Shown: positions 6,987 to 55,570, counted from the stretch's first letter. The stretch: DNA of 60,654 nt from an uncultured Chryseobacterium sp. (GCA_964447465.1 CAYUTR010000001.1:1-60654), one strand, 5' to 3'. Numbers and translations are program-made. Notes: a model not told the origin generated them from the sequence alone.

Positions 6987-7023
6987 ACTTTTATTTTACA
7001 TTGCAAAAACAATCGCTGTCTTG

Positions 7024-15332: not shown

Positions 15333-15407
15333 GGGGGCTTAGCTCAGCTGGTTCAGAGCATTTGCCTTACAAGCAAAGGGTCATAGGTTCGAATCCTATA
15401 GCCCCCA
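15333..15407 (+). tRNA. tRNA-Val (anticodon TAC), complete, element-borne
   Basis: GGGGGCT-TA-GCTC-AGCTGGTTCA-GAGC-A-TTTGC-CTTACAA-GCAAA-GGGTC-ATAGG-TTCGAAT-CCTAT-AGCCCCC-A. The cloverleaf folds perfectly by hand. 75 nt, CCA not encoded. Confidence 0.9.
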
Positions 15408-15412
15408 CAAAA

Positions 15413-22753: not shown

Positions 22754-22829
22754 TTTCGTAGAGGTTGTAGATTAATTGTTTTACTATTCTATTGTGCGCA
22801 ACTATCAGCGTGCGCAAATGGGAGTAAGA

Positions 22830-23810: not shown

Positions 23811-23879
23811 TTTTAGAAAGCAAGTTCCGGGAAATACACCCGAAACTTGCTTTGTTATACGCTTATAACCAAAGTTAAG

Positions 23880-26800
23880 TTATTTAACGATGACAAGGCG
23901 TTGCCCTTCCGTCACCTCGCCGTCCACCACTACGTGCAGCATATACACTCCACCCGGTAATACCGCCGTGCTAATGGTATATACTTCTTGGTGCGGAACA
24001 AGTTGCTGACTAAGGACAAGTTTCCCTGACAAGTCGAAAATTTCAACCTGCGCGTTTTGTCCTTCGTCTACACCGTACTCTAACTTTACAGATTCACTGG
24101 CAGGATTTGGGTAAACACTCAGATCGCTTTGTGTATCAGGAGTGCTCGTTTCGTGACCAAGACGCTGGGAACTTGCGCCGTAATAATCAATCTCAAGGTC
24201 AAGCATAACCCTTGCACTATAAACAGCAGTACCACCGTTAGACGGGTCTTGTAATGCGATGTTTAATAGCGTAGCCGAATCAGACGCTGAAAACTCCATG
24301 ATACCCTGCATCCACGTCGCTGCATATATACCGTACACCACTTTGGCGTTGTGCTCAATGATATTTGAACACGCAAGCGCGCTACACGCAGAAGCAACAA
24401 ACTGATAACCGCCGGTGTCCGCTGCAAGTTCTACCTGACGCAATGTTCCAACGTTAGTCGGGTTATAGCTGTTATAGAAATTTTGGTACAGCGTATCATC
24501 CGGGAAACCGAGATTTAACCACGAAGGTGTTTGCGTCAGTTTACGGTGAGCGTAACGACGAAGCTGATAACGGTTTTCGGCAGAGGTATTTGTATCAGAA
24601 GCAGAACGTAATGTTGCACCTACTTGTTGATCTCGCTCAAATTGTGCTTGTGAAAAGAAAAAGAAGTTGCAAGCATTGTATGAGACAGACTGCATTGTAA
24701 TTCCCGTTGCACTGGCACTGGTTGGTGGTGTCACGGTGTGGTAGCGCCAAAAAATAGCGGGCACAACCACTCCATTTATATCTTCACTCGCATTTTGCGT
24801 CGCAATCCAAGTATTTCCGGTTGCTGACGGTATGAAGTTTGGATCGACAATTTGATCGCCAATATCGCAAGTATCAAAAAACACCCCGTTATAGCATCGG
24901 CTCATTGTGTTGCACGCGAGTGTACTGGATGATGAAATATCCATTCCATAAAGTCCGCTACCTAAGCGCAAGAAAACGTTATCCGTTGCATAGGTCACTG
25001 GACTGTTTTCAATACTGATTCCACGCAGGCGTTGAACCATTGTTGAAATTGGATTAATCACTCCGGTTTTTGTAATACGATTGGTATCACATCTTACCGT
25101 CGCACAACCTTCTAAGCGAATTCCGTAATGCGCAGTCGAATATGCAGCGTTCGGTTTTGCAAAATTCACTACGTTACCTCCAATGAACACTTTGTTTTTC
25201 CCGACAAGGTTTTGCACCCAGATCCCGGTACGAACCCTATTGATAGAGTTGTTGCTCTGAATGCTCACCGTCATATCCGCCGGAGACACACAAGAAACGC
25301 GAATGCCAGTGCCGGTTTGTCGTGCATAAGCAGATGTAGTGTCCGCTGTCTGCAAGATGCGGTTGAGATTAATGTTAAGTGTAGCATCATAACATTCCAG
25401 CACGAGGATCGCGGTATTAAACGCGTAGTTCACCGCTTGGTTAGTGATGCGATTGTCGTTAATATTGATGCTTCGACCGACTGCACGTTGAACACGCACA
25501 CCGTAAAAACGTATGTCTGAGATGTTGTTGTTCAAAACTGTTACGTGCAATACTTCCCTCGCGTCAATCGCCGTTCGCATATTCACAAAGACACACCGGC
25601 GAGGGAGCGCACCTCCCACAGTGATTTGTGGTTGGTAAAGCGCATTCTTTTGTCCGATTGCAACAACACCAGTTCCTGCATCTGGAACATTAAATAACTG
25701 CACAAGGTTAGGTGTGAAATTCGCGAAACGACAGTTGAAAACGTTGGTTCGTGAGTTCTTAGAACGAACACCTACAAGAATGTCGGTGAAATTATTCTGC
25801 ATCACCGCCGCCGTTGGATCGCCAATAGTAATATCTGCGTTGTCTTCGATTTCAATGGCGCAGACCGTGCGGGTATGACCGAACGGTAAGGACGGAAATA
25901 GCGCGGGAAGGAACGGTTGGTTCATCGTGAAGTTGGTGCGACGAACTGTTCCAGGATGTGTGCCGGAGTAAGCCTTTACCACGATGTCCTTGTAATTATT
26001 TCGCAGGGTGGAGTTGTCGACATTGTACCTGCCGCCACTGATCGACACCACAGTGTTACGCGCTTGTTGAATATTTGAGTTGTTAATGATGTTCACTGTT
26101 GACGTTACACCGTTCAGATAGATACCATCCCACATATATCCGCACGCGGTTTGAGTTCGGCTATTGTTAAGCGTAAACGTTTCATTAGCCAATACTTGTA
26201 TTTGCGCATTCGCCCCCATATTTATGTTGAAGCAATTCAGGAACGTGAACGTGGTGTCAATAATGAATACTCCATTTATTGTAATGTTCGCCAACCCCGC
26301 CGTGAAGTTTGTCCCGATGATGTACGGGAAGAACGCAGGATCGTTCAACACAGACGACGCCGTTCGGTTATCAATACGTAGTGCGGTAGTATCGTCACAA
26401 CATGGCGGAATGTTGAGTGTGTCTTTCGTTACACAATCCGTAATCGTATCAAATGCAGTGAGAATAATATATCCACCAGCATTTGACCAGGAGACATGGA
26501 ATTGGCAGTTAGAAATTACCGTTCCTGTTCCTCCACTAGCAACCCATGTGTAGACTACATTCGTTTCACAATCCGAGGTATAAGAAAGAACACCGCTACC
26601 ACAGTTGTTTGTAGCTGCACCTGTTATAGCTGAAGATGGTCCACCGGGCTGAATAACCGAAAGCTGACAGGAAATCGTGTCGCCAAAAGTTGTTACAATA
26701 AAATGAGTAACTAAATACGTGTGACCATCTAGTGCGAATATGTGCGTCACATTTGGTCCGACCGCTGTAAACCCGTCGCCGAAATCCCAAAGGTGACTAG

Positions 26801-27974
26801 CTATTCCTTGCGTACAGGTTGATGTGTCCGAATAAAAACGAACACGACACGTAGCCTCATAAGTAAAACATGGATTTGGATTGTTAATGAAGAATGTGAC
26901 GGCAACACTATCAGTGCCACACTGATTTGTTACGACGAGGGAAGCAGTATGCAAGCCGGGAGCCAAGGCAGGATTACCAATATTACCATCAGGAAAGCAA
27001 ACAACTGAATCACACCCGAACAATGGAGGAAACGCACAGTTCTGAACTTGTACCCCGTCAACATAGAACGCAAGACCATGCACTCCGTTACCTACTGAAG
27101 TCAAGCACACAGTATCTCCTACACAATAACCCGTTTGATTCAGAACGAGATTAGCAACAGGAGGAGCTTGCACCAAGATTTGAAACTTCACGCCTGTTAG
27201 AAGCAGCGGTGGTCCATTCGGATCATCCCAAAAGTAAGCAAGTCCAATGTTGTAAACGCCTGGTGTATTGTAGGCACATGCCCACGACATAAACGTAGTG
27301 TCAATATAAGTTCCCGCACATGATCCTCCTTGAAATTGCCATACACCAAAAAAAGTATCATTCATTGGATAGTTCTGATTTGTGATTGGATGCACGAGGT
27401 ATATGGAATCGCCGGGGCAAATTGTATCAACCAGTTCGCAATCGTGCGCCATATAATCTGTACCTAAAATATCAGCATCATAACAGCAAAAAGTAATGTT
27501 CCCGTTCTGATCGGTCATGCAACCACCCCAATACGCCAGTACAGGTGGTGTTGTCGTCAGACAAAGATTGAACTTCGCATTTGGGTTGGAACCTGCGCCC
27601 GGTGCAGGACGTTCAAGTTTGACGAAATAGGTCAGGCCCACCGAAAGGCCATGCAACGGCATCCAAATAATGTGTTCGTTGGAAGGTGAAAGCGACCCGT
27701 TCGCGAAAGCAGTAAGCGAAGCGCACGCACCCGAATAAACGGTCATCGTTTGAAAATCAGAATAACCTAATTCGGTTACGGTGTACGACATGATATGCGT
27801 TGTAGACGTTGCAGTAAACGAATACCACGCTTCATTATCGGTTGTTGTTACACCGTTAAAGCAATTGTCCGATGTCATCGGAATTGCATCGGCGCAGGTT
27901 GCACCTGTTTGTGCTGTTGCAAAGCTGGCAAGCATAATGCCGAGCAATGCGAATAGTCGGGAGAGAGATTTCAT
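23880..27974 (-). CDS. large T9SS-secreted protein with PKD-like and parallel beta-helix repeats
   Basis: Signal MKSLSRLFALLGIMLASFATAQ. HLWDFGDGFTAVGPNVTHIF is PKD-like. Many N-rich beta-helix turns (NNNISDIRFYGVRV, INDNRITN). C-terminal VYPNPASESVKLEY...GVYMLHVV. Confidence 0.75.
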   Translation of the reverse strand: MKSLSRLFALLGIMLASFATAQTGATCADAIPMTSDNCFNGVTTTDNEAWYSFTATSTTHIMSYTVTELGYSDFQTMTVYSGACASLTAFANGSLSPSNEHIIWMPLHGLSVGLTYFVKLERPAPGAGSNPNAKFNLCLTTTPPVLAYWGGCMTDQNGNITFCCYDADILGTDYMAHDCELVDTICPGDSIYLVHPITNQNYPMNDTFFGVWQFQGGSCAGTYIDTTFMSWACAYNTPGVYNIGLAYFWDDPNGPPLLLTGVKFQILVQAPPVANLVLNQTGYCVGDTVCLTSVGNGVHGLAFYVDGVQVQNCAFPPLFGCDSVVCFPDGNIGNPALAPGLHTASLVVTNQCGTDSVAVTFFINNPNPCFTYEATCRVRFYSDTSTCTQGIASHLWDFGDGFTAVGPNVTHIFALDGHTYLVTHFIVTTFGDTISCQLSVIQPGGPSSAITGAATNNCGSGVLSYTSDCETNVVYTWVASGGTGTVISNCQFHVSWSNAGGYIILTAFDTITDCVTKDTLNIPPCCDDTTALRIDNRTASSVLNDPAFFPYIIGTNFTAGLANITINGVFIIDTTFTFLNCFNINMGANAQIQVLANETFTLNNSRTQTACGYMWDGIYLNGVTSTVNIINNSNIQQARNTVVSISGGRYNVDNSTLRNNYKDIVVKAYSGTHPGTVRRTNFTMNQPFLPALFPSLPFGHTRTVCAIEIEDNADITIGDPTAAVMQNNFTDILVGVRSKNSRTNVFNCRFANFTPNLVQLFNVPDAGTGVVAIGQKNALYQPQITVGGALPRRCVFVNMRTAIDAREVLHVTVLNNNISDIRFYGVRVQRAVGRSININDNRITNQAVNYAFNTAILVLECYDATLNINLNRILQTADTTSAYARQTGTGIRVSCVSPADMTVSIQSNNSINRVRTGIWVQNLVGKNKVFIGGNVVNFAKPNAAYSTAHYGIRLEGCATVRCDTNRITKTGVINPISTMVQRLRGISIENSPVTYATDNVFLRLGSGLYGMDISSSSTLACNTMSRCYNGVFFDTCDIGDQIVDPNFIPSATGNTWIATQNASEDINGVVVPAIFWRYHTVTPPTSASATGITMQSVSYNACNFFFFSQAQFERDQQVGATLRSASDTNTSAENRYQLRRYAHRKLTQTPSWLNLGFPDDTLYQNFYNSYNPTNVGTLRQVELAADTGGYQFVASACSALACSNIIEHNAKVVYGIYAATWMQGIMEFSASDSATLLNIALQDPSNGGTAVYSARVMLDLEIDYYGASSQRLGHETSTPDTQSDLSVYPNPASESVKLEYGVDEGQNAQVEIFDLSGKLVLSQQLVPHQEVYTISTAVLPGGVYMLHVVVDGEVTEGQRLVIVK

Positions 27975-28299: not shown

Positions 28300-29883
28300 T
28301 TAACTTCTAAATAGTTTTTTGGATTTACTGTTGTGAATCATTCGTTCCTCTTGATCTGGCTCCCGTTCAATTTGAAAGGAAGGTATTTCTTGAGCAAAGT
28401 TTTGGTGAGAGACTTTTGCAAAAAACCATTGATGAAAGATTATCACCTCAGAAGATTTTATTTCCCACTGCAATTCACCAGCTTTTTCGCGGAGCATTTC
28501 AAATGCTGCTTTTTGCTCGTGATAAATAGCTTTAAAATTGTAACCGTTATAGCTCAGACTATGGAGAACGCTGTGAATAAGTTTGGCGCGATGATTTGTC
28601 GTTCCATTTCCATTAGCAAAATATTTTCTTAATGCTTCAATCTTTGCCGTTGCATCGTCAAAGTCGTTCAACTCAATCGCGGTCATAATCTGCAAAATCT
28701 TTATTCCCAAGTTCCAGCCTTCCTTATCGGCTTCAATCGGATTAATTAGGGAAAGGTGCTTTGCCGAATATTGAAAATCCTTCATCATAAAGAACGTTGC
28801 AGCTAGAAAGTAACCGCGTTTCCCTGCTCTGAAATTGCCTGATTGTTCTTCAGAAGGAATGTATTCACAAAGTATATCATGTCCGATTCCATATTTACCA
28901 CCAAAGAACTTAGCATAAAACATTAGTTCTACACATATCTCATAGTTATGACTTCCTTTCTCTGACAAATTCAGAGCCGCAAATGCTTTTTGATAAGCGC
29001 GTTCAAATTGTCCTAAGTAAAGATCATTGTCGGCTAAATTCATCATTACCCCAATGAGTTTGTCGTGTGTCTTGATCGAAGGGTAATTTTGAATCAGCTT
29101 GTAATTGTTCAATAATTCTATTCGGGCCTTTTTGTAATCGCGGGAGCTTTGATAATTCTGCGCCTCAAGTTGTAAGTAATAGTAACCCACAGTTGCCGAG
29201 TCGGTGGTTTTAAAATCGTCTCGCATTGTATCAAGCATATCACGAAGCTCTTTTTGATTGATCTTACCTTCGGAATGAAAGTCACTGGGCGCAGTAATTT
29301 TTGTGAAGTATATCTCTGCTCTTACAACGGCATTTTTCGCAGTATCCGACTGTAAGTATTTTTTTACTAGGAGTGGCAAATTCTTGTCACCTTCGACTAA
29401 AACCCTGGATCGAATTAATATTCGCAAAGCAATAAGTTGCTCCTCGTAGAGTTCGTACTTCCCACATTGCTCTACTACACTCTCAAACATTTTTTTTGCG
29501 AGTTTGATTTTCCCTCTGCGGTGAAGAATTTGCGCTTGCGTGAGCTTCTTTCTGACTTCTATATTTACTTTGACTCTTTCGGGATACATACCCTCGCGAT
29601 CAATGTTTACATCAATGATTAAGGCGTCAAGCACTTTAATCCTGGTTCTGTTCGCTAACTTTTTTAAAGCCGGTTTATTGGGCTTCTTGTAAATAGCCAG
29701 TTCAATCTCATCGACTGATGCGGTACTATTTTCTAATGCTGTCAGAAACCCGAAAAGTTGAAGTCCTTTATTCGTCTCACTCTTCCACTCCAGGACAAAC
29801 GTCTTTAGATAGGTTCTAACAGAAACCTTTTCCTCTGAAGTCAGAATGCTGATAACGTCTTGCAGTGTTTTAATCGCTTCCAT
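28300..29883 (-). CDS. all-helical TPR-like repeat protein (possible sensor/regulator)
   Basis: 527 aa with no signal peptide or TM helix. Repeated ~34-aa helical hairpins (YYYLQLEAQNYQSSRDYKKARIEL, FERAYQKAFAALNL, YFLAATFFMMKDFQYSAKHL). Divergent from the 30801 operon. Confidence 0.45.
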   Translation of the reverse strand: MEAIKTLQDVISILTSEEKVSVRTYLKTFVLEWKSETNKGLQLFGFLTALENSTASVDEIELAIYKKPNKPALKKLANRTRIKVLDALIIDVNIDREGMYPERVKVNIEVRKKLTQAQILHRRGKIKLAKKMFESVVEQCGKYELYEEQLIALRILIRSRVLVEGDKNLPLLVKKYLQSDTAKNAVVRAEIYFTKITAPSDFHSEGKINQKELRDMLDTMRDDFKTTDSATVGYYYLQLEAQNYQSSRDYKKARIELLNNYKLIQNYPSIKTHDKLIGVMMNLADNDLYLGQFERAYQKAFAALNLSEKGSHNYEICVELMFYAKFFGGKYGIGHDILCEYIPSEEQSGNFRAGKRGYFLAATFFMMKDFQYSAKHLSLINPIEADKEGWNLGIKILQIMTAIELNDFDDATAKIEALRKYFANGNGTTNHRAKLIHSVLHSLSYNGYNFKAIYHEQKAAFEMLREKAGELQWEIKSSEVIIFHQWFFAKVSHQNFAQEIPSFQIEREPDQEERMIHNSKSKKLFRS

Positions 29884-30331
29884 TCAGGTGGTATTCAACT
29901 AATTAGAGTTACTGTCCCGATGCCACTTATTTTTCCAAACAAATAGCTGTCCCACTGGTGATTTTTGGATGATAAATAATCTAAAAATCATTCTTATGCC
30001 ACTATTTGATCTTATCTGTGCAATCATTAAAGTCGTCCTATCCATCATTAACTTCGATGATGTAGGTTTCTGAAGGTGTAATTCGGCTTGAATTAAGTAT
30101 CAGTTTATTGATTAGTCTGAATGCCTCTACCATTCGGAAGGGGCATTTATTTATTAATATTTAAATGATACTTATTGAATACCGTCAAAGTAAAAGCACC
30201 ACGGAGCCATTTCAAAATTTTTGTTTTTTGGAAATTTCGGTTTACATATCAGAGGAAATGGCACATAATCAACTGACATTCAATTCAATATGGTTGAAAT
30301 TCACGCAACCTACTTTTGAATGAAGACAACG

Positions 30332-30351
30332 TAGCCGTTTGTAAACGGATA
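30332..30351. promoter_or_regulatory. 20-bp palindromic operator-like site O1
   Basis: TAGCCGTTT-GT-AAACGGATA, located 13 nt downstream of a perfect -7 box TACTTTTG (30311-30318). Confidence 0.5.
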
Positions 30352-30724
30352 GCGTATTTCTAAAGATTTGATAGTAAGCTGTTTATTTATTTAAGCAACT
30401 CGCACACGTTGGAAATGTGGGACAGTAAGAAGCTGTTTTTTGAGGTTGCGTTGTAGCAATAGAATTCCACCACAAACATTGGGGCGTGGGACATTTGCGA
30501 ACCAGGACAGAGGAACCGCGAAGTCCCAACACCAAGTAACACAAAGCCCACGCCTTGACGTGAGCAATTGCGCTTCTTTGGTGTATTGAAATTTCGCGGT
30601 TTTCTGTCCCAAGAAACAGCAGTTGCTGTTTAGATATGTTGTTCCTTTTATTCTCTCGATAGTATCAGTTTGATTCTCAAAAATACGACGTTTAGCTGTT
30701 ATCCTCCAAAGGAATACTGAAGGT

Positions 30725-30754
30725 TATCCGTTTACAAACGTTTACAAACGGATA
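30725..30754. promoter_or_regulatory. operator-like site O2 (same palindrome with a 10-bp internal duplication)
   Basis: TATCCGTTTACAAACG+TTTACAAACGGATA. Removing one TTTACAAACG gives TATCCGTTT-AC-AAACGGATA. Lies 17 nt upstream of the -7-like TACTTTTA (30772-30779) and 46 nt upstream of ATG 30801. Confidence 0.5.
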
Positions 30755-30800
30755 AGATGGGCTTATCATCCTACTTTTACACTTACAGCAATCCAAAACG

Positions 30801-31877
30801 ATGAAGGAATTAATCACAGACATTCATAAGACACTGGAGGATTACCAGGAGGGCACAGGGCACGAGATCACGCCAGAGAGAATTGAGAAGTGGATCAGTC
30901 AATTTGATGAGGACGATCAGGAATTTATACTTCAAGAACTTTCTCCAATTCTAAAGGACCGGTACGTGTCTAAGAAAAGTATCAAGGTGTTTCTTAGAGC
31001 AGTTATTGTGAAGCTCCAAAAGAATTACGAATACAAAACACCGCAGAAGTTTTTGAAGGATACTGTTTTTCTTGATCTCCAGGATACCGGTAAGAGTCAA
31101 ACAGTAATGCTCAAACTCCTCGATGAGATTTTGCAAGCTGAATTTGATCTTAAACTTGAAGATTGCGGTAGCGTGAATCAAAAGTATCACATCTATATGG
31201 ATGATATTCTTTGCACCGGGAATACATTCTTTTATGATATAAAAAAATGGGCCGGCAAAGGTGAAGGTTCAAATGAAGAGAAGGTGCGAAAGGGAGAAAT
31301 TGAATTGATTATTTGTTACGTGTTTATCCACACGACTAATTTTCACAAGGTCAATAAAAGATTTAAAAGAGACATATCATCTGGCTTTGCCTCAAAGTAT
31401 TCTTTTTGGAGGTTGAAGGAAATTGACAATGGCAATTCAACAAGTTCAGCTTACGAAACTTTAATGCCTATTGAAGACGATCAATCTGACGAGGTGGTTG
31501 CTTATCAAGAGCAAATCACCACAGAGGTGGACAAATACACAAAGAAAAGCGATTATGAAGTTGATGATGAATTCTACCGGGCCGGTTCACGACCGAAGGA
31601 AGAAAAGTTCTTTTCCAGTCCTGACAATCGGATACGCTTTGAAAATATACTTTTGAATAAGGGCATAGAGATTCTTTCTAAGGCGAGTAGTCAAAAACCT
31701 AATATCCGTGCGTTGGGCTACGAATTACCTTCACATAAAAATTTTGGATTCGGTACTCTTTGTTTTACGTGGCGCAATGTTCCTAATAATACTCCACTTG
31801 TATTCTGGTATGCAGGTGGTGAATTCTTTCCGTTGTTTGAAAAGCGCAGGGCAATACCTACATTTAGATTTGCATGA
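30801..31877 (+). CDS. phosphoribosyltransferase (PRTase)-like domain protein
   Basis: KYHIYMDDILCTGNTFFYD fits the type I PRTase PRPP-binding loop (hydrophobic strand-DD-hydrophobic-x-TG-x-T). About 130 aa precede it and about 210 aa follow it, neither recognised. Stop overlaps the next start (ATGA). Confidence 0.45.
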   Translation: MKELITDIHKTLEDYQEGTGHEITPERIEKWISQFDEDDQEFILQELSPILKDRYVSKKSIKVFLRAVIVKLQKNYEYKTPQKFLKDTVFLDLQDTGKSQTVMLKLLDEILQAEFDLKLEDCGSVNQKYHIYMDDILCTGNTFFYDIKKWAGKGEGSNEEKVRKGEIELIICYVFIHTTNFHKVNKRFKRDISSGFASKYSFWRLKEIDNGNSTSSAYETLMPIEDDQSDEVVAYQEQITTEVDKYTKKSDYEVDDEFYRAGSRPKEEKFFSSPDNRIRFENILLNKGIEILSKASSQKPNIRALGYELPSHKNFGFGTLCFTWRNVPNNTPLVFWYAGGEFFPLFEKRRAIPTFRFA

Positions 31878-32593
31878 AAGGCCAAACCAACAAGAACGAG
31901 GAGAGAATCTACACCTACTCCTCGTCCTGTACATTTAGAAAGACCAAAGAAAATTTTGGCGGACTATCGAATATGGCAAGTGGCTTTCCGCTTGAGATCA
32001 ATGGCATCCATATTTATTCCTCTGAGGCCTTATATCAAGCGTGTCGATTTCCACACTTGCCTGAAGTACAAAAAAACATACTGGAGCAGAAAAGTCCAAT
32101 GACCGCAAAAATGGTTAGCAAGCCATTTCGGGAAGAATCCCGAAAAGATTGGATGCAGATTAGAATAAAAGTGATGCGATGGTGTTTGAAAGTAAAATTG
32201 GCTCAACACTTTGATTCCTTCGGCAGACTTATCGAAACGACAAACTCAAAGGACATTGTAGAGGAATCATCGAAAGATCCATTTTGGGGAGCTATTCGGA
32301 TTAATGAAAACGAGTTGAAAGGTGTAAATGCTTTAGGGCGCTTGTTGATGGAGCTGAGAAATGACTACAATTCGATTAAGAGATTTGAATTGCTCATCGT
32401 AAATCCTCCAGCGATTCCCAGGTTTAATCTGATGGGAAAAAAAATAAAGCGAATTGATGAAAGAAAGAAATTTCTCAAGGATATGAAACAAAAAATTGGC
32501 TTAGAGAAAAATAAAAATTCAACATCCATAAAAGTGCAAGGTGGGAAGTCTATTCAGGAGCGGGAGAAAAGCTCAGAACTCTTACTCTTTTAG
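31874..32593 (+). CDS. NADAR (YbiA/DUF1768) family protein
   Basis: FGGLSNMASGFPLEINGIHIYSSEALYQACRF, W..IRIKVMRWCLKVKLAQH, IVEESSKDPFWG and GVNALGRLLMELR follow the NADAR consensus blocks in order. K-rich C-terminal tail. Confidence 0.75.
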   Translation: MKGQTNKNEERIYTYSSSCTFRKTKENFGGLSNMASGFPLEINGIHIYSSEALYQACRFPHLPEVQKNILEQKSPMTAKMVSKPFREESRKDWMQIRIKVMRWCLKVKLAQHFDSFGRLIETTNSKDIVEESSKDPFWGAIRINENELKGVNALGRLLMELRNDYNSIKRFELLIVNPPAIPRFNLMGKKIKRIDERKKFLKDMKQKIGLEKNKNSTSIKVQGGKSIQEREKSSELLLF

Positions 32594-32595
32594 AA

Positions 32596-33630
32596 ATGTC
32601 TGAAATTGATTGGAAGAAACTTCTGCTTAAATCAGGTCTGCCATTTGAGTATGAAGTGAAAGAGTGTTTCGTGAAGCAGGGCTGTACTGTGTGGGATGAA
32701 TATTCCTACGTCAAGGAAGATGAAAATAATGTCGAAAAAGAATTTTCTCACGATCAGCAAGCGAATACCTGGATAGGTGGAAATTCTGTTGACTTTCTAA
32801 TAGAGTGTAAATACAAAACCGAACCGACTAAATGGTTTTTTTCTCCTGACCCATACGCATACCAGGACGAACTTACGCGAAATGATTTTTTACATCCCGT
32901 CGATCATTTCATCGATAATAAATTTCCATTCACGGAATCTCCATACGACAAAGTTCAGGATGCACTTGGGCCATTCTGTTTAAAGGGCGTAGAGTTACTC
33001 GGCAACAAGTGCAATGACCTGACGATTTATAAGGCAATCAATCAATTGTCCTACGCATTTGTTCACCACTACATGAACTCGATTGAGAACCAAATGAGTG
33101 ACGGACAATTTGGCGGAGGAAGGTATTTCCAGATTCCTGTTATCATTACTAACGCAGAACTGTATTTAATCAACGAAGGGGTAACGACAAAAGACATTGC
33201 ACAGTCAAAAAGTATTGAAGAAATATCCCACCGTGAGAATTTTTTGATCTTTCACAATAAAATTGGACAACAATTAAGGGCACACAACTACGACAAGGTT
33301 TATGCTTTTTTCAATAACCTTCCCATGACAGATAGGTTCAAGGCGAAAAACAAATCATTCACAGAAGACATTAGTCAGTTTATTAACATCGTGGCAAGCG
33401 TCTTATGTCCACAGGCCATTTTAGTGATGCACCACGATGAAGCTCATCAGAATTACAAAAAGCTGTTTGATTACATCACCTTTTTTATGGTTCAGTCTCC
33501 TGAGTTAAAAAAGCGAGTGAAAGAGGAAATGGAAAAATTGCAAGAGACATTGAAGCAAATGGAGAGTAAGCCACGCAAAAACAAGAAAGAGGGGAAATCC
33601 TCAACTAAAACACCCAAAAAGCAGTCATAA
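32596..33630 (+). CDS. PD-(D/E)xK nuclease-fold protein with long helical C-terminal extension
   Basis: Starts 2 nt after the upstream stop. LPFEYEV ... FSHD ... NSVDFLIECKYK gives the E / D / ExK arrangement of restriction-endonuclease-like folds. Lys-rich tail. Confidence 0.55.
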   Translation: MSEIDWKKLLLKSGLPFEYEVKECFVKQGCTVWDEYSYVKEDENNVEKEFSHDQQANTWIGGNSVDFLIECKYKTEPTKWFFSPDPYAYQDELTRNDFLHPVDHFIDNKFPFTESPYDKVQDALGPFCLKGVELLGNKCNDLTIYKAINQLSYAFVHHYMNSIENQMSDGQFGGGRYFQIPVIITNAELYLINEGVTTKDIAQSKSIEEISHRENFLIFHNKIGQQLRAHNYDKVYAFFNNLPMTDRFKAKNKSFTEDISQFINIVASVLCPQAILVMHHDEAHQNYKKLFDYITFFMVQSPELKKRVKEEMEKLQETLKQMESKPRKNKKEGKSSTKTPKKQS

Positions 33631-33722
33631 TCTGCCAACAATTGTCAACTACACTTTTGCGGGAATTGGCGTAACTTCTTTTTCTTTAGCGTCTTACAAT
33701 GAAAATGACGCGATGTGATGTA

Positions 33723-33749
33723 TGCCACATTCTGCCACAAATTGCCACA
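33723..33749 (+). promoter_or_regulatory. three direct TGCCACA repeats at exact 10-bp phasing
   Basis: TGCCACA at 33723, 33733 and 33743, 45-70 nt upstream of ATG 33794. A -7-like TATCTTTA lies at 33782-33789. Confidence 0.45.
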
Positions 33750-33793
33750 ACCGATCAACAAGAATTCAATCTACTGGATATTATCTTTACAAG

Positions 33794-34594
33794 ATGACTG
33801 TTGACAAAGGAGAAGCTGGCGTTTCGATTATTAAGTCATTGCTCAGTGCTGTGCCTTATGTTGGCACAGCTTTGGACGAAGTGTTTTTTGAATACCGGGG
33901 ACGGATCAAGCAAAAGCGCATTGAAAAATTCATTGAGATTTTTGCAGAACTCGTTGGCAGCATTAAGCAAGAACAGTTTAACCTGGACAGTATTAAATCG
34001 GAAGATTTTAGTGACTTTTTTGAAGCGTTGCTTATTCAGGTATCAAAAACATCATCGGAGAAAAAACTTGAACGCTTCAAGCAACTGCTATTAAAAGAAC
34101 TCATTGATCCGTCACCGGTCGATTATGCAGAACTGTATTTGCAGATTCTTAGCGGCTTGCATGAAAAGCAAATAATAATGCTTTCGGATTATGATGATGT
34201 ACGAGGGTCAGAGTATAATTCCGCTGTGGGAGAAAGAAATATTACCGAAGCGGAAGTAACAAGGATAGAGAAGCAACTTGAAATAGCATACAGGGCAGTG
34301 ACCGATACTACACCGGCGGAAGAGGATCAAAATATCCAAAACCTCTTAGGCTTAAAGCAAGATATGGAGAGACGGTTTAAATGGCTTGACGAAAAAGTTA
34401 GTGATCTGAGCGTTGAGTACGCAAGCGTGGAATATGGAATGGATACTGAAGAAAGAATGTATTTCATTCAGGACTTGTGCAGCAAGGGTTTACTCCGAGA
34501 TATTGGAATGGAATACCCTGGGACAGCTTCCGGGGTTCTTGTCGAAATTACGCAGCTCGGAAGTGATTTGGTTAAGAGAATTCAGGATCAATGA
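33794..34594 (+). CDS. hypothetical protein with C-terminal winged-helix-like segment
   Basis: ORF 33722..34594 trimmed to ATG 33794 (MTVDKGEAGV). Helical N-terminus (SIIKSLLSAVPYVGTALDEVFFEYRGRIKQKRIEKF, faintly Abi-alpha/DUF4393-like). C-terminal YFIQDLCSKGLLRDIG...VEITQLGSDLVKRI is wHTH-like. Confidence 0.4.
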   Translation: MTVDKGEAGVSIIKSLLSAVPYVGTALDEVFFEYRGRIKQKRIEKFIEIFAELVGSIKQEQFNLDSIKSEDFSDFFEALLIQVSKTSSEKKLERFKQLLLKELIDPSPVDYAELYLQILSGLHEKQIIMLSDYDDVRGSEYNSAVGERNITEAEVTRIEKQLEIAYRAVTDTTPAEEDQNIQNLLGLKQDMERRFKWLDEKVSDLSVEYASVEYGMDTEERMYFIQDLCSKGLLRDIGMEYPGTASGVLVEITQLGSDLVKRIQDQ

Positions 34595-34604
34595 ACCGGG
34601 CACA

Positions 34605-34635
34605 AAAAAAACCGCACAGAGGCGGTTTCTTTTGC
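34605..34635. terminator. bidirectional rho-independent terminator between convergent genes
   Basis: AAAAAAAACCGC-ACAGAG-GCGGTTTCTTTT: an A-tract, a 6-bp GC-rich stem, then a T-tract. Confidence 0.65.
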
Positions 34636-34646
34636 TTTGGCGGCAT

Positions 34647-36212
34647 TTATTCTCTCGGATCAGCAAATCGTACCAGTTCGCCAGTATATCCCTTGAATCG
34701 GCCTTTTCCGAATGCAGCTCCAAATTCAGGGAATTCGACAATGTGTGCTGCATCATGCACGTACTCATTCGCTCCCCGGTGCTGCCCATCCTTCGTAGCA
34801 TGAAGGATCGCAAACAAAGTCGTGTCAGGGCCGAGTCGTTTTTGCAAGGCTACCAACTGCTTCGGATTAAGTCCGAGTCGGCTTACGCTGTCCAGAAATA
34901 CAAATTTATAGTCGCGAAGATCGCCTGGATTAGCAGGTAAGTCGTCGTCAACGTACAGGTTTGGATTTGCCGCCTGCGTCTGTTCAAACTTGTCCTGGAA
35001 TGTACCTGAGAGTTCCTCTTCCTTTTGAATGAATAGCACCGGTCCGTGATGAGTTGAAAGGTATCCGGCAAAGTCAACCAGCGTCGTTGTTTTACCGAGT
35101 TTTTCTTTGGAGAAAACAATCGTATGTTTTCCAGGTTCAATATGTCCGAAGACCTTTACCCAAGGCTCGGCGATTGTATAACATGGAAACTTCTGTTTCA
35201 TAAATTCCGTGCTCGGTATCGGCCCTTTGGATTTCCGCTGAACGTTTTCTTCGTCGTGTGAAGCATTCACTTCCTTATCATAGGTTTCAGGGTACTCAAT
35301 GCCGTTCAGTTCCTCCGGTTCCTTTTCGCAACCACAACCGAGAATGCCACTCAGTTCGGCAGGTAAAAGCGGTAATAGAGCTTTTTCATTTTTCTTTTCG
35401 TCGTACTTCTTCAGCACTTTCATGGCTTCGATAATCTGGCTGAAGTACCTGTCATCCTCCGGGATGTCTCCCTTTTCAATTGCGTTAAACATTCCGTTGT
35501 AAAGTCTCCTGACTTTTTCCACCGTGGTAGATTTTTCTGCTTGACCTGCGTATTGTGACAAGAGTTGAACTGAACGCATTTTGTGCTCATCCTGGATTAA
35601 AGCCTCAATAGCTTTTCTTTCGCCGGCAGAAATATGTACCATCGCCATCGCACCTTTCGTTGTGTTGACCAGCTTTACAATGTTGTCGCGCATCTTTTCT
35701 ATATGCGCGGAATATTTGGAAGCCTTGCGCAGAACGCGGGCGTTGATCTGTCTTGCAAGTTTCCTGGCAAAAGATATTACGCGACTCGTTGGAACTTCCT
35801 TCTTTGAAAGATTGAGATACTGACCAAGCAGTACAATATGCGGATCAAGTGTTTCAACCGCCTTGCCAGATTTGTGCTTTGGCAGACTGACAGAACGCCT
35901 AACCACCTGCCGGGACTGAGGTTCTTCGTCCGGAGTTTTTTGCTTTGATGTTACAGGACCGTGTGATTTTGTTTCTGCCTTTTTGGGTGGGGAACTCTTT
36001 TCACTACCCTTTGTCTCCATCATTTCATCGAGAAGGGCAAATTGCTTAACCATCGCCGACCTGATCGTTTCGTTGCGATCATACAGCTTCCAGTTACTTC
36101 CGCTTTCCGTAGCGTTGCGGATGTAATCATGCGCCTTCTGCATCTTGTCTGAAAGGTTCTTAGCACCAATCTCACGGATGCGCTCAAAATAATTTTCTTT
36201 TGATGTTTTCAT
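34647..36212 (-). CDS. protein with C-terminal RadA/Sak4-like RecA-fold ATPase domain
   Basis: Walker A-like FSKEKLGKTT, Walker B YKFVFLDS, then LFAILHATKDGQHRGANEYVHDAAHIVEF...KGRFKGYTGE, which parallels RadA GHVTKEGxIAGPRxLEHMVDxVLxFEG...KNRFG. The ~340-aa N-terminus is unrecognised. Confidence 0.5.
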   Translation of the reverse strand: MKTSKENYFERIREIGAKNLSDKMQKAHDYIRNATESGSNWKLYDRNETIRSAMVKQFALLDEMMETKGSEKSSPPKKAETKSHGPVTSKQKTPDEEPQSRQVVRRSVSLPKHKSGKAVETLDPHIVLLGQYLNLSKKEVPTSRVISFARKLARQINARVLRKASKYSAHIEKMRDNIVKLVNTTKGAMAMVHISAGERKAIEALIQDEHKMRSVQLLSQYAGQAEKSTTVEKVRRLYNGMFNAIEKGDIPEDDRYFSQIIEAMKVLKKYDEKKNEKALLPLLPAELSGILGCGCEKEPEELNGIEYPETYDKEVNASHDEENVQRKSKGPIPSTEFMKQKFPCYTIAEPWVKVFGHIEPGKHTIVFSKEKLGKTTTLVDFAGYLSTHHGPVLFIQKEEELSGTFQDKFEQTQAANPNLYVDDDLPANPGDLRDYKFVFLDSVSRLGLNPKQLVALQKRLGPDTTLFAILHATKDGQHRGANEYVHDAAHIVEFPEFGAAFGKGRFKGYTGELVRFADPRE

Positions 36213-36229: not shown

Positions 36230-39200
36230 TTATTCTTCATCCAGTTCTAGCATAAGCAAAATTGCCTCCGCTTCCAGTTCCAATTCTCTTTCGAGCAGCG
36301 TTTCATCTTCTACCACTTCGGGCAGCATTTCAAGGTCAGGGAAACTTTCCTGTTCCTGTTTGTCTGTGAACTCCTTGTAAATCTTATCAAACTGCAATGG
36401 AGTGACCGCGACAGAAGTGCCTAAATCGCTCTCCAAAATTTCCAGCACTTCTTTAAGTTTAGTTGAATCGAAATAGGCAACCATCTTATCGCTTTGCTTG
36501 CTGAAGTTGTTATCGTCAATGAGCTTCAATAGGTTTTCATTCAGAAATATTTCACCTCCCTTGCTCTTTGTTCCTGAAACAACTACCATGAAACGTCCGT
36601 CACGTCGGAACAACGAAAGATGTTTTCCGATCACCACATGACCTCCTTCTACTAATGATTGTAAAATGGAATATGCTTTTGTTGCAGGAACAGCTACACC
36701 TTTTTCTGCGTCTTCATCCGGAGTCCAGTATTCAGGCATAAGGATTCCTTTTGCAACAGATCCGTCTTTGGTAGTGTAGTTGATGAGTTTGCCCCGGTAG
36801 CGACCAAGGGCCTGAAGAATATTTCCAGTAATAATGTACCTGCTTGCCCGGTCTGATTGGCGCTTTTGTGTTGTCTCTGACCAAATATCAGCGACCTGTT
36901 CAAAACCTCGCTGTGGTATATCAAAGCTCTCACCCTTTATACGCTGAATTGTCTCAGCCTTACTTGCAGGAATAACCAGGTATCGCAACCCGCTCGCAAT
37001 CGCAAAACGAAGTTTGATAGCACTTGGCGTAAAAGGATTTTTTTGATTTCGGTCAATTCCGAATCCAATGAAGACCGCTAGTATCTTTATCTGCCCTTCG
37101 TCCAGCGTCCTTGCAGGATAGTACAACAAGCGACCAACGTAGAAAAACGCAAGCGTTGATTTGGCAAAGTCGTTCCTACGTTCATAGTTGTATTGGGCTT
37201 TTTCTTCGCGGGATTTACGCTCGTCTTTGATAACTGCTTCCGCCTTATCTAATGCTCTTTCATACACTTCCCATCCATGCTTTTCAAGCATCTTCTTTAA
37301 TCGTGCCGAAGTTTTGAGTTCGTCAATTGAACGTGTGTATTGCTCCTTAGCCTGGAGCAGTTCATCATCAAGCATTTTCTGGCTTGCTGTTTTGAATTCA
37401 TCAAGGAGCATTCTGCTCTGTTCGGTAGCGGACAGTCCATCAAGTGACTGTCGTAGCATTACTCCCAATTCGTCAGCCTTCATCGGCTTACGCAATACAT
37501 TCACTTCGACAGTTTCCAAAACGCTGTCTTTTCCAAAGGAACTTCTTCCACCTCGACCCATTATTAAAACCTTGCGTTGTTTGGTTTCAGCATCGAGCTT
37601 CATTTCCTCAACTTCAAGATCGTATTCGCCGGTTTGCTTCATGTATTCAACATGGTCATTGTACCTCCGAACGACCTCATCATAAAAGTCCTGTTGCTCC
37701 TTTGAAGAAAGAACAGCTACACGACCGGAAACCATGAACGCTGCGTCATCTTTGCCGCGCTTCAGTTCCTTCGGTTCCTTTCCTTCCTTCTCTTTTTCTT
37801 TAAGTCCTAGAGGGTCTTGCAGAGCATCATTTATTTCAGGGTGATCTACCATGTATTCTGTCACGACTAAATCACCATACTTGTTCAGAAAATCAGGCAC
37901 GTCGAGAATCCTCGTACTCTGTTTTTGATTCGATGTTGTGTTCGCGTCCAACGATTTTAACTTTCGTTGAAGCATCATCATCAAGCGTTTTTCCGCAGGA
38001 ATTGCAGACGAAACATAATCGTAGATAGGTTTATATACCTGACCGGTGCGATTGACCCTGCCGCGCTTCTGTACCTCTGTACTAATATCAAGTTCTGGCT
38101 GCAGCACGATCATTACACGTTGCTTCACCTCCTCAAAAGGAACTTTGTCTGTTACGATTGCATGTGCTGATGCGCCTGTTGAACCAGATTGATTGATAAG
38201 CAAGACATCAATTTCATTGTTGTTGAATTTTCGGAAAGCCTCATTGGTAAGAATTTTTTTACGCGGATGGATGCGCCCCATGAGTTTGGTTCGCTTACCA
38301 AATGCTTCTTCCAGGTCAATGCCTGGGAATTCATCTTCAGCGGTGCTTGAAAACTCAATACCGCTTTCTGTTTTCACCTCGTTGAGTTCAACCGAAATTC
38401 TTCGCCCGGTAACTTCAGCAACAGAATATCCGGCCTCACGGATTTTTTTGACAATCACATCAATTGGCGAAATGCTGATCCCGGTTGAAACCGTTTCAAT
38501 CTTCTCGATGATATTCCAATATGCAAGTTCCGCCTGTGGCCCGAGTTCTTTGGCCGTAAAGGTTCTTTGTTCAACTCTTCCATTGGGGAGCGTGAGGGTA
38601 TATCGCATGATACTTGATAAACCGCGTTTAAGCACCTCCGAAAAATCAGCGGCGATAACGTCACCAGCTTTAACAGGCTCACCGTCTTCATTCGTCATGG
38701 ACTCAATAAATGCAGCCATTGTGCTGGAAAAAGCGATCACCGGTTTTTTCCCTTCCTTCAGGCGCATGATTGCACGTTCTGCCACCGCGTCAGCCTTAAT
38801 ACTGAAAAGCATTTGATTGATAACATTAAATACCCTTGAGAAGTAAGGGTCATTGCTCACCCCTGCCTGCTTCGTTCCTTTCCGTAACTCAACATTCACG
38901 TTGGCTTCGGCAAGTTCATCATCAAGACGCTTCACTTCCTTGCTTACAAAATCCTCCTGGAAACGGATGGTGTCACGAAGTACTTGGGTAACAGTATCAG
39001 CGATTGCCCGGTGTTCGTCCTCCATCTCGTCGAGGGTAATGTAATTGACTTCTACACCTTCATAAGAACGTTCACGGCGCACCATTTGACCTTCCTTGAC
39101 CAACTCGCTGGAAATAACTTCCTGCAACGGCACACCACCGGCCCTGATTGCCCAAACAAGCTGTTCACGATTCATGTTGCTTTCGCTCATCAGGGTTTTC

Positions 39201-42200
39201 CTTGCATACAATGGGAGGTTTGCAGGTTTCTTTGCGAACGTCGCTGATAGATACAGAACTCCTTTACAATGTGAGATAAGACGCTGAAAGAATGCTCCTG
39301 TATTCCCTTCGCCACTCGCATTGTGTGCCTCATCCATGATGAGAATATTCTTATTAGCAACAGCGTTGAGAAAACGTTGCTTTGCGGAAAGTTCGTTAGA
39401 GCTGAACTGGCTATATGTTGCAAGCAGAAAATTGAATTGCGCGGGAATCTCCGCATCATCAAATATTTCAGCTTGTTCCTTTTGCGAAAGTGCCTCGTAC
39501 ATCGTCTCACCGTATTCATCAAGAATATCAGTTTTGTCGTCCTTAGCATTTACAATAAATGGACGAAGGCTTCCCGATCCGATTGCCTTTAGATCGCGAT
39601 ACAGGTCAGAGAACAGGTTTGGTTTTTCCGTGAGGAAAATTGGCTGATAACCTCGTTTAACCCCATACCGAATTATTGCTGCCGCCACGCGACCTTTACC
39701 AATTCCGGTCTGATCGCCTTCTATTGCTCCCTGTTCTCGGGCTTCGATATTGTAGATGGCAATTGCTACCGCGTCGATCTGTTCGGCTGCCAATGCAGCG
39801 CACAATTCTTTTTTTGATCCGTAGCCTAATCGGTTGCGAACAAATTCATCAATGTCACCACCTATTGCATCATTGACTTTTTGTAATGCCTGGTGCGTTT
39901 CAAAACTCATTGCATCCGGTACAACAGTATCCAGCACAACACAACCCTGGGAAGTAGGAACATAAGTAGCTCCAAGACCGTTCAGGTTTTCCGGTTGGTC
40001 TAGTGACTGAATGCTTTGTACAACAACGTTGTTTCCGAAATTGTCCTTGAAGGAATGTCTTAACTCACTGTCGGCCCAACGTTGAGCAAGATAGTCCGAA
40101 TGAAAAGCCTTGAACGCGACGAATTGAGAATAAGGAGGCGTATTCAGCTTAAAAATGATCTTGTAATTTTGAGCGCGTTCTTTCCTGTGTAGAAAGTCGT
40201 GAACCGCAATTGCTTCGTTAAAGTGTTTTTTGGGTGTAGATCGTTTGTGATCGTCCGCAGGCTTTTCTTCCCAAGTGGATTTTTGTTCTTGCTTTGGCTT
40301 AGTATCATCATCGTCCAAAAGATTAAGGATGCTGCTTGCATCATCTTCAAAATCCTTTTCACTTTTATCGACTTTTATATTTCGGAATAAATCAGGGTAG
40401 CTGATTCGTACATCGTATGGCAATTCTATCCTTTCATCAATCGCCATTTTTACAAAGTTCCTGTGCTGTTCCGTGAATTCTTTTTTTGTTGGAGGGACAC
40501 TATCTTCTGAGTGCAATGTTGTTTGCCAACGGATCCATTCAGTCAGGCTTAAATAGTGTGCGGGAACCATAAAGTTGCGATGCCTCATTACCCGCTTGTA
40601 CAGCTCGTCGAAATCTCTGATCGGTGTATCGAGCTTTTCAGAAAAGGCAGGAGCGGTTGCATCAAATATTCTTTGCCGTTTGGAAATAAGAATCAGTCTT
40701 GCATCAACGCCACTGCCATGACTGGAGTACAATTGTTTGTCAATCGGTATAATATCAATAACCCGGTAGTGCTTATACAGGTAATCAAGGAAGGTGCGAT
40801 TTGCTCCTTTGCTGATACGCCCTTTGCCATCGTAGGAAGTATGTCCGCCGAGTATAATTGCTGCGTTGCCTAAGTCGTGCATACATTCAAGCGCATTCAG
40901 CACCATGATGTGCTCAAGTGATTTTATTTCATAGTCCCCATAGCGAACTGCGTGATCCATTTTGCCGAGCGGAGGATTTGCAAGTACGCAAGCGAACTTT
41001 TTATCAAGGCCAATAAAGGGTTTTGTTGCGTCCTGGCTTGTTACACGGAAATAACCTTGTGTGCGTAGATGCTGAACCCTGAGTTTGTCAACTTCGTTGA
41101 CGATTGTTTTATCAGGAGAGGAAGCAATTGTAAGAAGTCCATTGCCAGCGCAAGGCTCAAAAATGCTTCCGTACATATCAGCTCCTGTAATGATCCCCGC
41201 AAGAAAGGAGATGGGAGCCGGTGTACTCTGCTGCCCTAATAACTTGCTTTGACCTGTGGGATGAAACAAGTTGAGCTGCGAACTGTACAACGATATTAAT
41301 TCATCGTAACGGTTCCGATAGGTCTTCTCCTGGTGCGCTAATTCTCTCGCACAGATTGTAACTGCCAACTCGGTGAGTTCATTGATTAAGTTCTTGTCGG
41401 CGATCTCAAAATCCTCCGCAACGTTTTCGTAATACAAACGACTGCGAACATTTCTCTTTTCAAGATCATTAATTACAAATTCAACGAACTCCCGATGCTC
41501 CTGCTTAAGTTTTTCAAGCGAAAGTCCTTCAAGTGCATCATTATCTTCACCGGTTTCCATGCCGTTTAATGTTTTTGATTGGGTTGGCGCAAATCGCAAA
41601 AGGATTCTGAATATTTCTTCGGCGACTTGCGGGACAATTGCATTTCCTAATCCTTTAAGTCTGTCCAGCCTACGGGGTATCCCATCAGCCACTCTACCCA
41701 CTCCGGGTTCAGTTGGCCATTTGGACGTTTCTGTTTTATAGCTTCCCTTCGCGCCATTGCGGAGAGCGATTTGCTTTGTTGCGAATTTCCCTTTAGCCGG
41801 TACTTGTGTTCGGATGCGGTAGGTGTCGGATAAAACTGAACGAACAGCATAAGGTTTTGCTGTATTTTTTTTCCAGTCCTTCGATGAAAAAGAGTCTGGT
41901 TCCATCTCCTTGGTGTTTCTCCATCCTTGTCCACCATGTCTCTTGCGTTTCTCTCGAACTGCGTTGCCGTTGGTGTAGGCAAGAATCCAAACCCTGTCTC
42001 TCCGATGGGGTGCATCCTTGGCGCAAGCTGGTATAACAAACGTTTCTGTGGTGTAACCTTCATTCTCCAATTGAGAAAGCACTTGGTCGAGTGCCAGGTT
42101 GATGATTCCAGAAACATTTTCACCAATGATGAAACGGGGCCGTACTTCTCTGATAACTCTAAGCATCTCAGGCCAGAGGAAACGGAGGTCTTTTTTCCCT

Positions 42201-55404: not shown

Positions 55405-55518
55405 ATTGTAAAGGCTCAAACAATCTCTGAAAAGCCTTAACCGCCCGAAACCCTGATTTTATTCAGAAATTCGCACTTTAGAAGATTTTAGGAAGTATCA
55501 AAAGACTTGAAATTCTGT

Positions 55519-55560
55519 CTTACAAGCAGAGGGTCACAGGTTCGACTCCTGTAGCTCCCA
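55519..55560 (+). pseudogene. 3' half of host tRNA-Val(UAC) (attR)
   Basis: CTTACAA-GCAGA-GGGTC-ACAGG-TTCGACT-CCTGT-AGCTCCC-A. GCAGA pairs with TCTGC at 15216-15220 and AGCTCCC with GGGAGCT at 15188-15194. Confidence 0.85.
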
Positions 55561-55570
55561 CAAATCAAAA

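Follow-up and report, generated by a model that had tools for sequence, protein, structure and literature searches.

Positions 30,801 to 34,594 of a 60,654-nucleotide stretch of DNA from an uncultured Chryseobacterium sp. (GCA_964447465.1, CAYUTR010000001.1:1-60654; the whole stretch is called the window below, and coordinates are window positions unless another locus is named) contain four plus-strand open reading frames (ORFs), A to D, which a preliminary description had taken for an undescribed four-gene conflict system. Our analysis indicates that this block is probably the variable cargo slot of an integrative element of about 40.2 kb inserted in a tRNA-Val gene, and that the slot holds three independent modules: a phosphoribosyltransferase (PRTase) and NADAR gene pair (A-B), judged to be a divergent Bacteroidota member of the known defence system DS-32, a nuclease-like gene (C) and an orphan gene (D). 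The idea of conflict-related cargo on a mobile element thus stands, but the novelty of the system does not, as A-B is known and C and D are not syntenic with it; in terms of annotation, an apparently new four-gene system becomes a known two-gene system with neighbours.

A PRTase-NADAR pair of the DS-32 type

DS-32 is a two-gene PRTase plus NADAR system whose anti-phage activity has been validated in E. coli (DefensePredictor; bioRxiv 10.1101/2025.01.08.631726, PMC13092281). It is also named 'NADR', and the E. coli sequences used here (WP_000097610.1 and WP_032260665.1) come from the supplement of the DefensePredictor paper. The core of our finding is a known system, because both proteins pass the corresponding NCBIfam equivalog cut-offs, both align with E. 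coli DS-32, and DS-32 is already counted in later papers, which give its numbers from defence-system annotation of genomes. The earlier statement that no named system has this gene combination is therefore superseded for the PRTase and NADAR core, and an anti-phage role of A-B in the window may be assumed by analogy with the E. coli orthologue.

Gene A, previously regarded as unrecognisable outside its loop for 5-phosphoribosyl pyrophosphate (PRPP), matches a single Pfam family, PRTase-CE (PF24390), at 167.7 bits, and over its full length the NCBIfam equivalog NF053875 (DS32_1_antiphage) at 308.7 bits, the cut-off being 250. Pfam and NCBIfam scans returned neither PF00156 nor any housekeeping PRTase family for A, which points to a non-housekeeping PRTase. 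The whole of A can be aligned with E. coli DS-32A (WP_000097610.1; BLASTP, 26 % identity, E = 3e-26), the PRPP loops (YMDDILCTG in A, YIDDVSFSG in E. coli) and the C-terminal motifs (FTWRNVPNNTPLVFW and FTYRNCPNNVPLAFW, respectively) corresponding to each other. The PRPP loop noticed in the preliminary description is indeed present: it occupies residues 130-143 (YMDDILCTGNT), with two acidic residues followed by T/S-G-x-T inside the PRTase-CE domain, and A belongs to the type I PRTase fold. In an alignment of 33 A homologues, D134 and D135 of this loop are invariant, as are N329, N330 and P332 (C-terminal motif FTWRNVPNNTPLVFWY), and T139, G140 and T142 are at least 90 % conserved. The PADLOC PRTase_III-A models match A weakly (2.5e-12); no ADP-ribosyltransferase (ART) or DarT match was found in Pfam, PADLOC or NCBIfam, no PADLOC or NCBIfam ShosT model matched at E ≤ 1, and a PDB sequence search with the A profile gave no meaningful match. 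Many A-family proteins are 470-620 amino acids (aa) rather than about 360 aa long (P0093, P0110, P0147, P0152, P0175), which implies extra domains, and an IF2_N match occurs in one of the longer proteins.

The recognition of B as a clear NADAR domain was borne out by Pfam (PF08719, 80.7 bits against a gathering score of 35.1). In addition, B reaches 273.4 bits with the equivalog NF053876 (DS32_2_antiphage; cut-off 240), is 42 % identical to E. coli DS-32B (WP_032260665.1; BLASTP, E = 6e-57), and aligns to YbiA (2B3W) at 2e-15 and to the solved NADAR 8BAU. Comparison with 2B3W, 8BAU and DS-32B shows that the NADAR-conserved SSE...Q, VE and D-x-x-W-G positions are kept, Glu included. YbiA-type NADARs have a catalytic Glu and are annotated as N-glycosidases for phosphoribosylamino-pyrimidines (family definition in PMC11125620), and NADARs hydrolyse N-glycosidic ribosyl-guanine bonds and serve as antitoxins to DarT1 and YarT (PMC11125620). 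B is a YbiA-type NADAR with predicted N-glycosidase activity.

Synteny of the pair

A profile of the 33 A homologues led to 80 metagenome loci, whose six-frame ORFs were searched by hidden Markov model (HMM) and jackhmmer. A NADAR gene lies directly 3' of the PRTase gene in 76 of the 77 loci with room downstream; among the four loci lacking it, three end at a contig edge and L060 is the only true exception. Not one of the 80 loci carries a C- or D-like gene, and the 58 complete genes found 3' of B homologues fall into 45 unrelated families. These include Hachiman HamA, CBASS-type E1-E2/CapP, TmtA, a STAND-Cap4-like protein and ArdA, as well as integrases, sugar-modifying enzymes and housekeeping genes. 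As in A-B, the two genes are adjacent, PRTase then NADAR, with no conserved third gene across related loci, and a Klebsiella pair beside an IS5 element shows the same layout. The overall distribution is patchy and takes in mobile elements, insertion sequence (IS) elements and defence genes, together with many ordinary chromosomal contexts. The range of DS-32 is thus not confined to E. coli but takes in Bacteroidota and numerous environmental lineages, in which PRTase and NADAR form a rigid pair. When A was used as a single-protein query against genome contigs one locus was retrieved, and its profile found nothing among viral contigs.

Some departures from the simple pair were seen. The A homologue at 451-1533 of L060 is the sole one with downstream room and no NADAR gene after it. 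In three loci (L041, L068, L078) the PRTase-CE gene is present twice in tandem, ahead of a single NADAR gene. In a marine clade (L047, L048, L051, L054, L055) a conserved third gene of about 185 aa, with no Pfam match, lies -12 to +3 nt from the NADAR gene, and this clade may represent a true three-gene DS-32 sub-type.

A cargo slot in a tRNA-Val element

The element that carries the block is bounded by attachment (att) repeats, 15360-15408 and 55512-55561, which are identical at 43 of 49 positions; ARAGORN reports only the intact tRNA-Val gene and not the 55512-55561 copy. Both the Arm-DNA-bind_5 integrase and the sorting domains of the type IX secretion system encoded here are indicative of Bacteroidota. 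Related elements place A-D in a slot between conserved backbone genes. The closest of them, L008, has a backbone that is 86 % identical in DNA to that of the window element, its 521-aa and 2071-aa (methylase-helicase) backbone proteins being 89 % and 95 % identical, respectively. Both A (72 %) and B (83 %) are retained there, but the third gene, encoding 325 aa, is a different one and a small reverse-strand ORF takes the place of D; the homology between the two DNAs breaks at gene boundaries and restarts exactly at the terminator that follows D. In L010/L011, A (66 %) and B (73 %) are likewise kept, and an ion-channel gene follows. Since these sister elements retain A-B and swap C and D, with breaks at gene boundaries, the slot is, as judged from these comparisons, a hotspot of gene-by-gene cassette exchange. 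In this family of tRNA-Val elements, conserved backbone genes thus enclose a cargo hotspot where defence genes are exchanged one by one.

The third gene of L008 (2330-3307) begins 27 nt after B and has no Pfam or PADLOC match. Its product contains LEHRVE...EID...FICECEN, with Glu in place of the conserved Lys of C, and its identity as a close C homologue was excluded by tblastn and HMM searches.

Gene C

C has 61 close clusters, and a profile search of 1.84 billion representatives delineated a family of at least 758 clusters at E ≤ 1e-3, nearly all of them 300-340 aa long. Among 42 relatives at 21-36 % identity, D53, E70, W80, F82, Q150 and T185 are invariant, and conservation reaches 90 % or more at E18, C71, K72 and Y73; in relatives spanning 21-58 % identity, E18/D53/E70-x-K72 varies little or not at all. 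An E...D...ExK...Q pattern is typical of PD-(D/E)xK/RecB-like nucleases. The AlphaFold model of C is confident (predicted local distance difference test, pLDDT, 90.4; predicted template modelling score, pTM, 0.87) and puts the signature residues on the helix 15-27 and the strands 47-52 and 63-72, so that both conservation and model show an acidic-acidic-x-Lys signature on an alpha-beta-beta-beta core. Foldseek searches of PDB and BFVD with this model gave nothing at E ≤ 1e-3. The weak local matches, covering about 60-90 columns, are mostly to PD-(D/E)xK proteins, namely AF1548, Hjc, the R2 endonuclease domain (RLE), AddB, Cas4, alk-exo, Mrr-like, VRR-NUC and YqaJ; the roughly 250 residues outside the core, the C-terminal region, found no fold match. 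C therefore likely has a nuclease-fold core of the PD-(D/E)xK-like kind. The earlier assignment of C to the restriction-endonuclease fold from its E/D/ExK layout is upheld as regards the conserved signature, and only weakly as regards structural resemblance.

Neither C nor its 71 relatives (72 proteins scanned) matched any Pfam family, nuclease or other; C itself had no PADLOC or NCBIfam match, and PDB chain sequences searched with both C-family profiles (narrow and superfamily) gave no meaningful match. Shedu (SduA, DUF4263) was considered and rejected, as PF14082 matched neither C nor any of the 71 relatives, and the DUF4263 label carried in UniRef by one relative (P0056) was not reproduced by Pfam scans.

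Eight further contexts contain a C homologue, in each case unaccompanied by a PRTase or NADAR gene: Chryseolinea soli, Imperialibacter roseus, a Sphingobacteriales metagenome-assembled genome and five further metagenome contig families. About half of these contexts are mobile or defence islands, the rest being ordinary chromosome. The C homologue is accompanied by two Shedu genes and recombinases in L096, by SRA-HNH, methylase and HerA-like ATPase genes in L006, and by WYL, cREC and integrase genes in L103. In the last of these a 248-aa gene with no Pfam match (7002-7748) overlaps the C homologue by 4 nt; no other context hints at a partner for a C-family protein. A single distant locus was recovered from viral contigs with the C profile, whereas tblastn with C gave no match in the phage collection and only a 27 % Leptospira match in the plasmid collection. 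Neither the A nor the C family thus appears to be typically phage-borne.

The most likely function of C is single-gene nuclease defence or another DNA-targeting activity, and it would have been captured into the A-B transcript as a free-standing module. A tentative and rather doubtful extension is that C founds a widespread stand-alone family of PD-(D/E)xK-like defence nucleases, of which a member (or, in L008, a remote relative) is recruited behind DS-32, possibly as a co-operating second layer.

Gene D

D is an orphan helical protein with its own promoter region. Only two other clusters exist among 5.8 billion clusters, and Pfam, PADLOC, NCBIfam and PHROG scans assigned D to no family. The AlphaFold2 model, built from three sequences, has a pLDDT of 53, and in it a C-terminal helix-strand-strand-helix arrangement is no more than suggestive of the winged helix-turn-helix-like domain of the preliminary description. 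The true start is likely the ATG at 33794, because the product on record, of 266 aa, begins there and the alignments with the two homologues start at residue 23-25.

One D homologue is the last of a same-strand gene set (L012, 1042-7786) that also contains a DEAD helicase, a HATPase_c_3 protein and an SLFN/AlbA_2 protein; the set, which has an Eco57I/XamI restriction-modification pair as its neighbour, may constitute a defence system of several genes. The other homologue is found among housekeeping-type genes. A 325-aa protein near the D homologue in L013 was excluded as a close C homologue by tblastn and HMM searches.

One system or several modules

We read A-D as juxtaposed independent modules rather than as a four-gene system because none of the 80 A loci has C or D, C stands alone in its eight other contexts, and sister elements swap the genes behind B. 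Conserved neighbourhood of A, B and C, on which the preliminary description had made the single system depend, is accordingly lacking in either direction (0/80 and 0/8). Several observations weigh against this modular reading. C is almost certainly co-transcribed with the DS-32 pair, since only 2 nt separate B from C and there is no terminator between them, and it is probably translationally coupled. The third gene of L008 can be aligned by hhalign with the N-terminal core of the C superfamily (E = 1.8e-4, probability 48 % with the broad profile; E = 0.009 with the narrow one), and two of the three related elements may therefore carry a nuclease-like gene right after B. The nuclease assignment itself has no significant structural or profile match behind it, the best Foldseek match of C having an E-value of 0.16 and a probability of 0.75, and Pfam and PHROG scans of the other element genes assign the carrier to neither a conjugative element nor a prophage.

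The first group of these observations would be explained if A-B-C, with or without D, were one integrated system, with the pair setting and removing a signal or mark and a PD-(D/E)xK-like protein serving as exchangeable effector; the common strand of the genes, the single terminator after D and the position and weak N-terminal similarity of the L008 protein would also fit. We consider this improbable, given that the other A-B loci are devoid of C and D, that L010 has an ion-channel gene in the position concerned, that C homologues live alone elsewhere, that a construct of two genes is enough for protection by E. coli DS-32, and that the conserved Lys of C is replaced by Glu in the L008 protein. 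It is quite improbable, too, that the module serves the element, either as an addiction (post-segregational killing) pair or as a counter-defence NADAR removing DarT-type ADP-ribose marks from incoming DNA. Such a role is in line with its being carried by an integrative element and placed behind an operator-like palindrome peculiar to that element, a toxin-antitoxin-like architecture fits addiction, and orphan phage NADARs are described in PMC11825919 as neutralising DarTG1. Unlike those orphans, however, the NADAR of this family essentially never occurs without its PRTase (76/77), the orthologous E. coli pair scored as defensive, and many A-B pairs reside in ordinary chromosomal contexts. Addiction and defence are not mutually exclusive.

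A purely metabolic pair, engaged in salvage or detoxification of nucleotides or riboflavin intermediates and with no part in conflict, would be in keeping with PRTases being classic salvage enzymes and with the score of B, which equals exactly the cut-off of TIGR02464, a riboflavin-intermediate N-glycosidase (73.7 bits). It is nonetheless highly implausible, since A matches only PRTase-CE and the DS-32 equivalog and no housekeeping PRTase family, the distribution is patchy, on mobile elements and beside IS elements and defence genes, and an orthologue has a validated anti-phage phenotype.

Possible mechanism and relation to known systems

For the DS-32 pair, the coupling of a PRPP-using transferase with an N-glycosidase suggests reversible phosphoribosylation or a PRPP-burning cycle. 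A would be the toxic effector, spending PRPP and placing 5-phosphoribosyl on a nitrogen of a base, nucleotide or nucleic acid; B would hydrolyse the N-ribosyl bond made by A, as an antitoxin-like eraser comparable to the NADARs for DarT1 and YarT; and infection would tip the balance towards A, with replication being blocked. By analogy with those systems, this model, in which B restrains a toxic A until infection, has in our view slightly less than an even chance of being correct. It is unlikely, if quite conceivable, that A and B instead form a futile cycle that burns PRPP, as might be supposed from the Retron-Eco11 PRTase effector, which has the PNNxP signature and depletes PRPP. The authors of DefensePredictor noted that the DS-32 NADAR resembles DarG-type antitoxins and that the PRTase bears no resemblance to DarT, and they suggested swapping of toxin-antitoxin partners (PMC13092281).

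The window pair has the two proteins of DS-32 in the same order, overlapping or abutting, passes both equivalog cut-offs, and shares with E. coli DS-32 the PRPP loop, the C-terminal RNxPNNxPLxFW motif and the same C-terminal segment of the NADAR protein. It differs in that A is only 26 % and B only 42 % identical to the E. coli proteins, that the host belongs to the Bacteroidota and not to the Enterobacteria, that the pair occupies a cargo slot within a tRNA-Val element and is preceded by a palindromic putative operator specific to that element, and that an extra nuclease-like gene belongs to the same operon. Type III-A retrons (Retron-Eco11) resemble it in their PRTase-like effector with PRPP loop and PNNxP signature, and provide a precedent for toxicity by PRPP depletion; the A-B pair, however, comes with no reverse transcriptase, msr/msd non-coding RNA or fused winged helix-turn-helix, and the partner is a NADAR protein. 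No reverse transcriptase domain was seen in the genes flanking A-D, which encode an ATPase and a TPR-like protein of 527 aa, and 29700-34800 has no Rfam match.

DarT1-NADAR (DarTG1) and YarT-YbiA likewise couple a NADAR N-glycosidase, thought to be an eraser or antitoxin, to a ribose-phosphate-type transferase, but the transferase in the window has the PRPP-using PRTase fold and is not an NAD+-using ADP-ribosyltransferase, and B is of the YbiA type (Glu), not of the BC4488 type (Asp) of DarT1-linked NADARs. An identity of A-B with DarTG1 or a DarT-NADAR pair was rejected, A matching PRTase-CE only and no DarT-type partner. ShosTA, too, employs a PRTase-domain toxin (ShosT, which perturbs purine metabolism) for phage defence; its antitoxin ShosA is, by contrast, a DprA-like DNA-binding protein and not a NADAR, and A has no ShosT model match. 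C resembles Shedu SduA and the DS nucleases of DefensePredictor in being a stand-alone protein of about 330 aa with E...D...ExK that is sometimes found in defence or mobile islands, and differs from SduA in lacking a DUF4263/SduA_C match and in the roughly 250 residues without fold match outside its core.

Region upstream of gene A

The predicted folding of the 917-bp intergenic region 5' of A is far stronger than that of its shuffled versions (z = -6.25), so the strongly folding region of the preliminary description exists; its interpretation as a structured leader did not survive, as a putative promoter directly before the ATG of A makes it probably not transcribed as a leader. A riboswitch or structured-leader reading was dropped in favour of palindromes at the DNA level because an Rfam search of 29700-34800, this region included, gave no match. 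The folding signal looks largely like the product of these palindromes and of an internal long hairpin, not of a demonstrated RNA leader.

The palindrome has the consensus CCGTTT(A/G)(C/T)AAACGG (CCGTTTACAAACGG) and matches the window four times within one mismatch (three times upstream of A and at 7099-7112), against 0.06 matches expected by chance. It recurs before A in L008 (1-30 and 448-461) and L010 (6941-6954), where the surrounding spacer DNA is unrelated, and is absent from all other fetched loci; in two of the three related elements a second copy lies about 390-450 nt further upstream. TAnnTTTG is the consensus of the Bacteroides/Bacteroidota -7 promoter box. The proximal palindrome is placed just 5' of such a -7-box-like sequence, itself about 20-30 nt from the ATG of A, and perfect TAnnTTTG boxes are found in the same position in L008 and L010. 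We infer that TACTTTTA is the putative promoter of the A-B(-C) operon, over which the palindrome looks like an operator; as a conserved palindrome overlaps the promoter, the A-B operon may be under repression by the element.

The roughly 370 nt between the palindrome copies (30352-30723) contain a long imperfect hairpin (30514-30532, for example, pairs with 30583-30601), with a minus-strand terminator-like site at 30565-30546; this segment, which has no convincing ORF and no Rfam match, could be a small RNA or the remnant of an inserted repeat element. A counterpart of the 117-aa divergent ORF of L008, a candidate regulator, was sought in the window and in L010 and not found.

Gene arrangement and coordinates

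ORF calling reproduced the four plus-strand ORFs of the preliminary description (Table 1), which, for long ORFs and between about 17 and 53 kb, are indeed the only plus-strand block of the element. Its remaining structural details were confirmed as well. A and B overlap by ATGA at 31874-31877; B and C are joined as TAG-aa-ATG, with the 2-nt gap at 32594-32595; and D follows C (to the ATG at 33794) after 163 nt, close to the 160 nt first noted, in a repeat-bearing promoter region with three copies of TGCCACA. Within this spacer, 33631-33747 is 70 % identical to the DNA behind the third gene of L008. The bidirectional terminator is a hairpin common to the convergent D and 521-aa genes, preceded by an A-tract and followed by a T-tract, and marks the point where backbone homology to L008 restarts.

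Table 1. Features of the window discussed in the text.
Feature	Position	Strand	Length	Basis or remarks
tRNA-Val(TAC), integration target, left element end	15333-15408	+		ARAGORN; repeat from 15360
527-aa backbone gene, weak TPR signal, left flank of slot	28300-29883	-	527 aa	divergent from A
Distal palindrome copy CCGTTTGTAAACGG, operator-like	30335-30348	.		pattern matching
Proximal double palindrome TTATCCGTTTACAAAC/GTTTACAAACGGATAA, putative operator	30724-30755	.		46-77 nt before A start codon
TACTTTTA, near Bacteroidota -7 box TAnnTTTG	30772-30779	+		21 nt before A ATG
A	30801-31877	+	358 aa	ORF calling
B	31874-32593	+	239 aa	ORF calling
C	32596-33630	+	344 aa	ORF calling
Three TGCCACA repeats, 10-bp spacing	33723-33749	+		C-D spacer, ahead of D promoter-like region
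D	33794-34594	+	266 aa	ORF open 33722-34594, likely start ATG 33794
Hairpin terminator	34604-34638	.		A8, CCGC, 6-nt loop, GCGG, T-rich tail
521-aa ATPase-like backbone gene, right flank of slot	34647-36212	-	521 aa	phrog_6891 at 6.8e-15
C5-methylase / SNF2-Sbno-type helicase backbone gene	36230-42445	-	2071 aa	domain scans
Tyrosine integrase (Arm-DNA-bind_5 + Phage_integrase)	53969-55327	-		next to right tRNA-Val copy
Partial 3' tRNA-Val copy, right element end (att repeat)	55512-55561	+	50 nt	sequence comparison

As regards the surroundings of the slot, the 527-aa gene on its left has a homologue, 21 % identical, at the corresponding place in L010/L011. Just beyond it, 19274-27974 encodes giant proteins secreted by the type IX secretion system (S8 or M43 peptidase, PKD and Por_Secre_tail domains); such giants are found in the same place in L010/L011 (1-3675) and hence seem to be part of the element.

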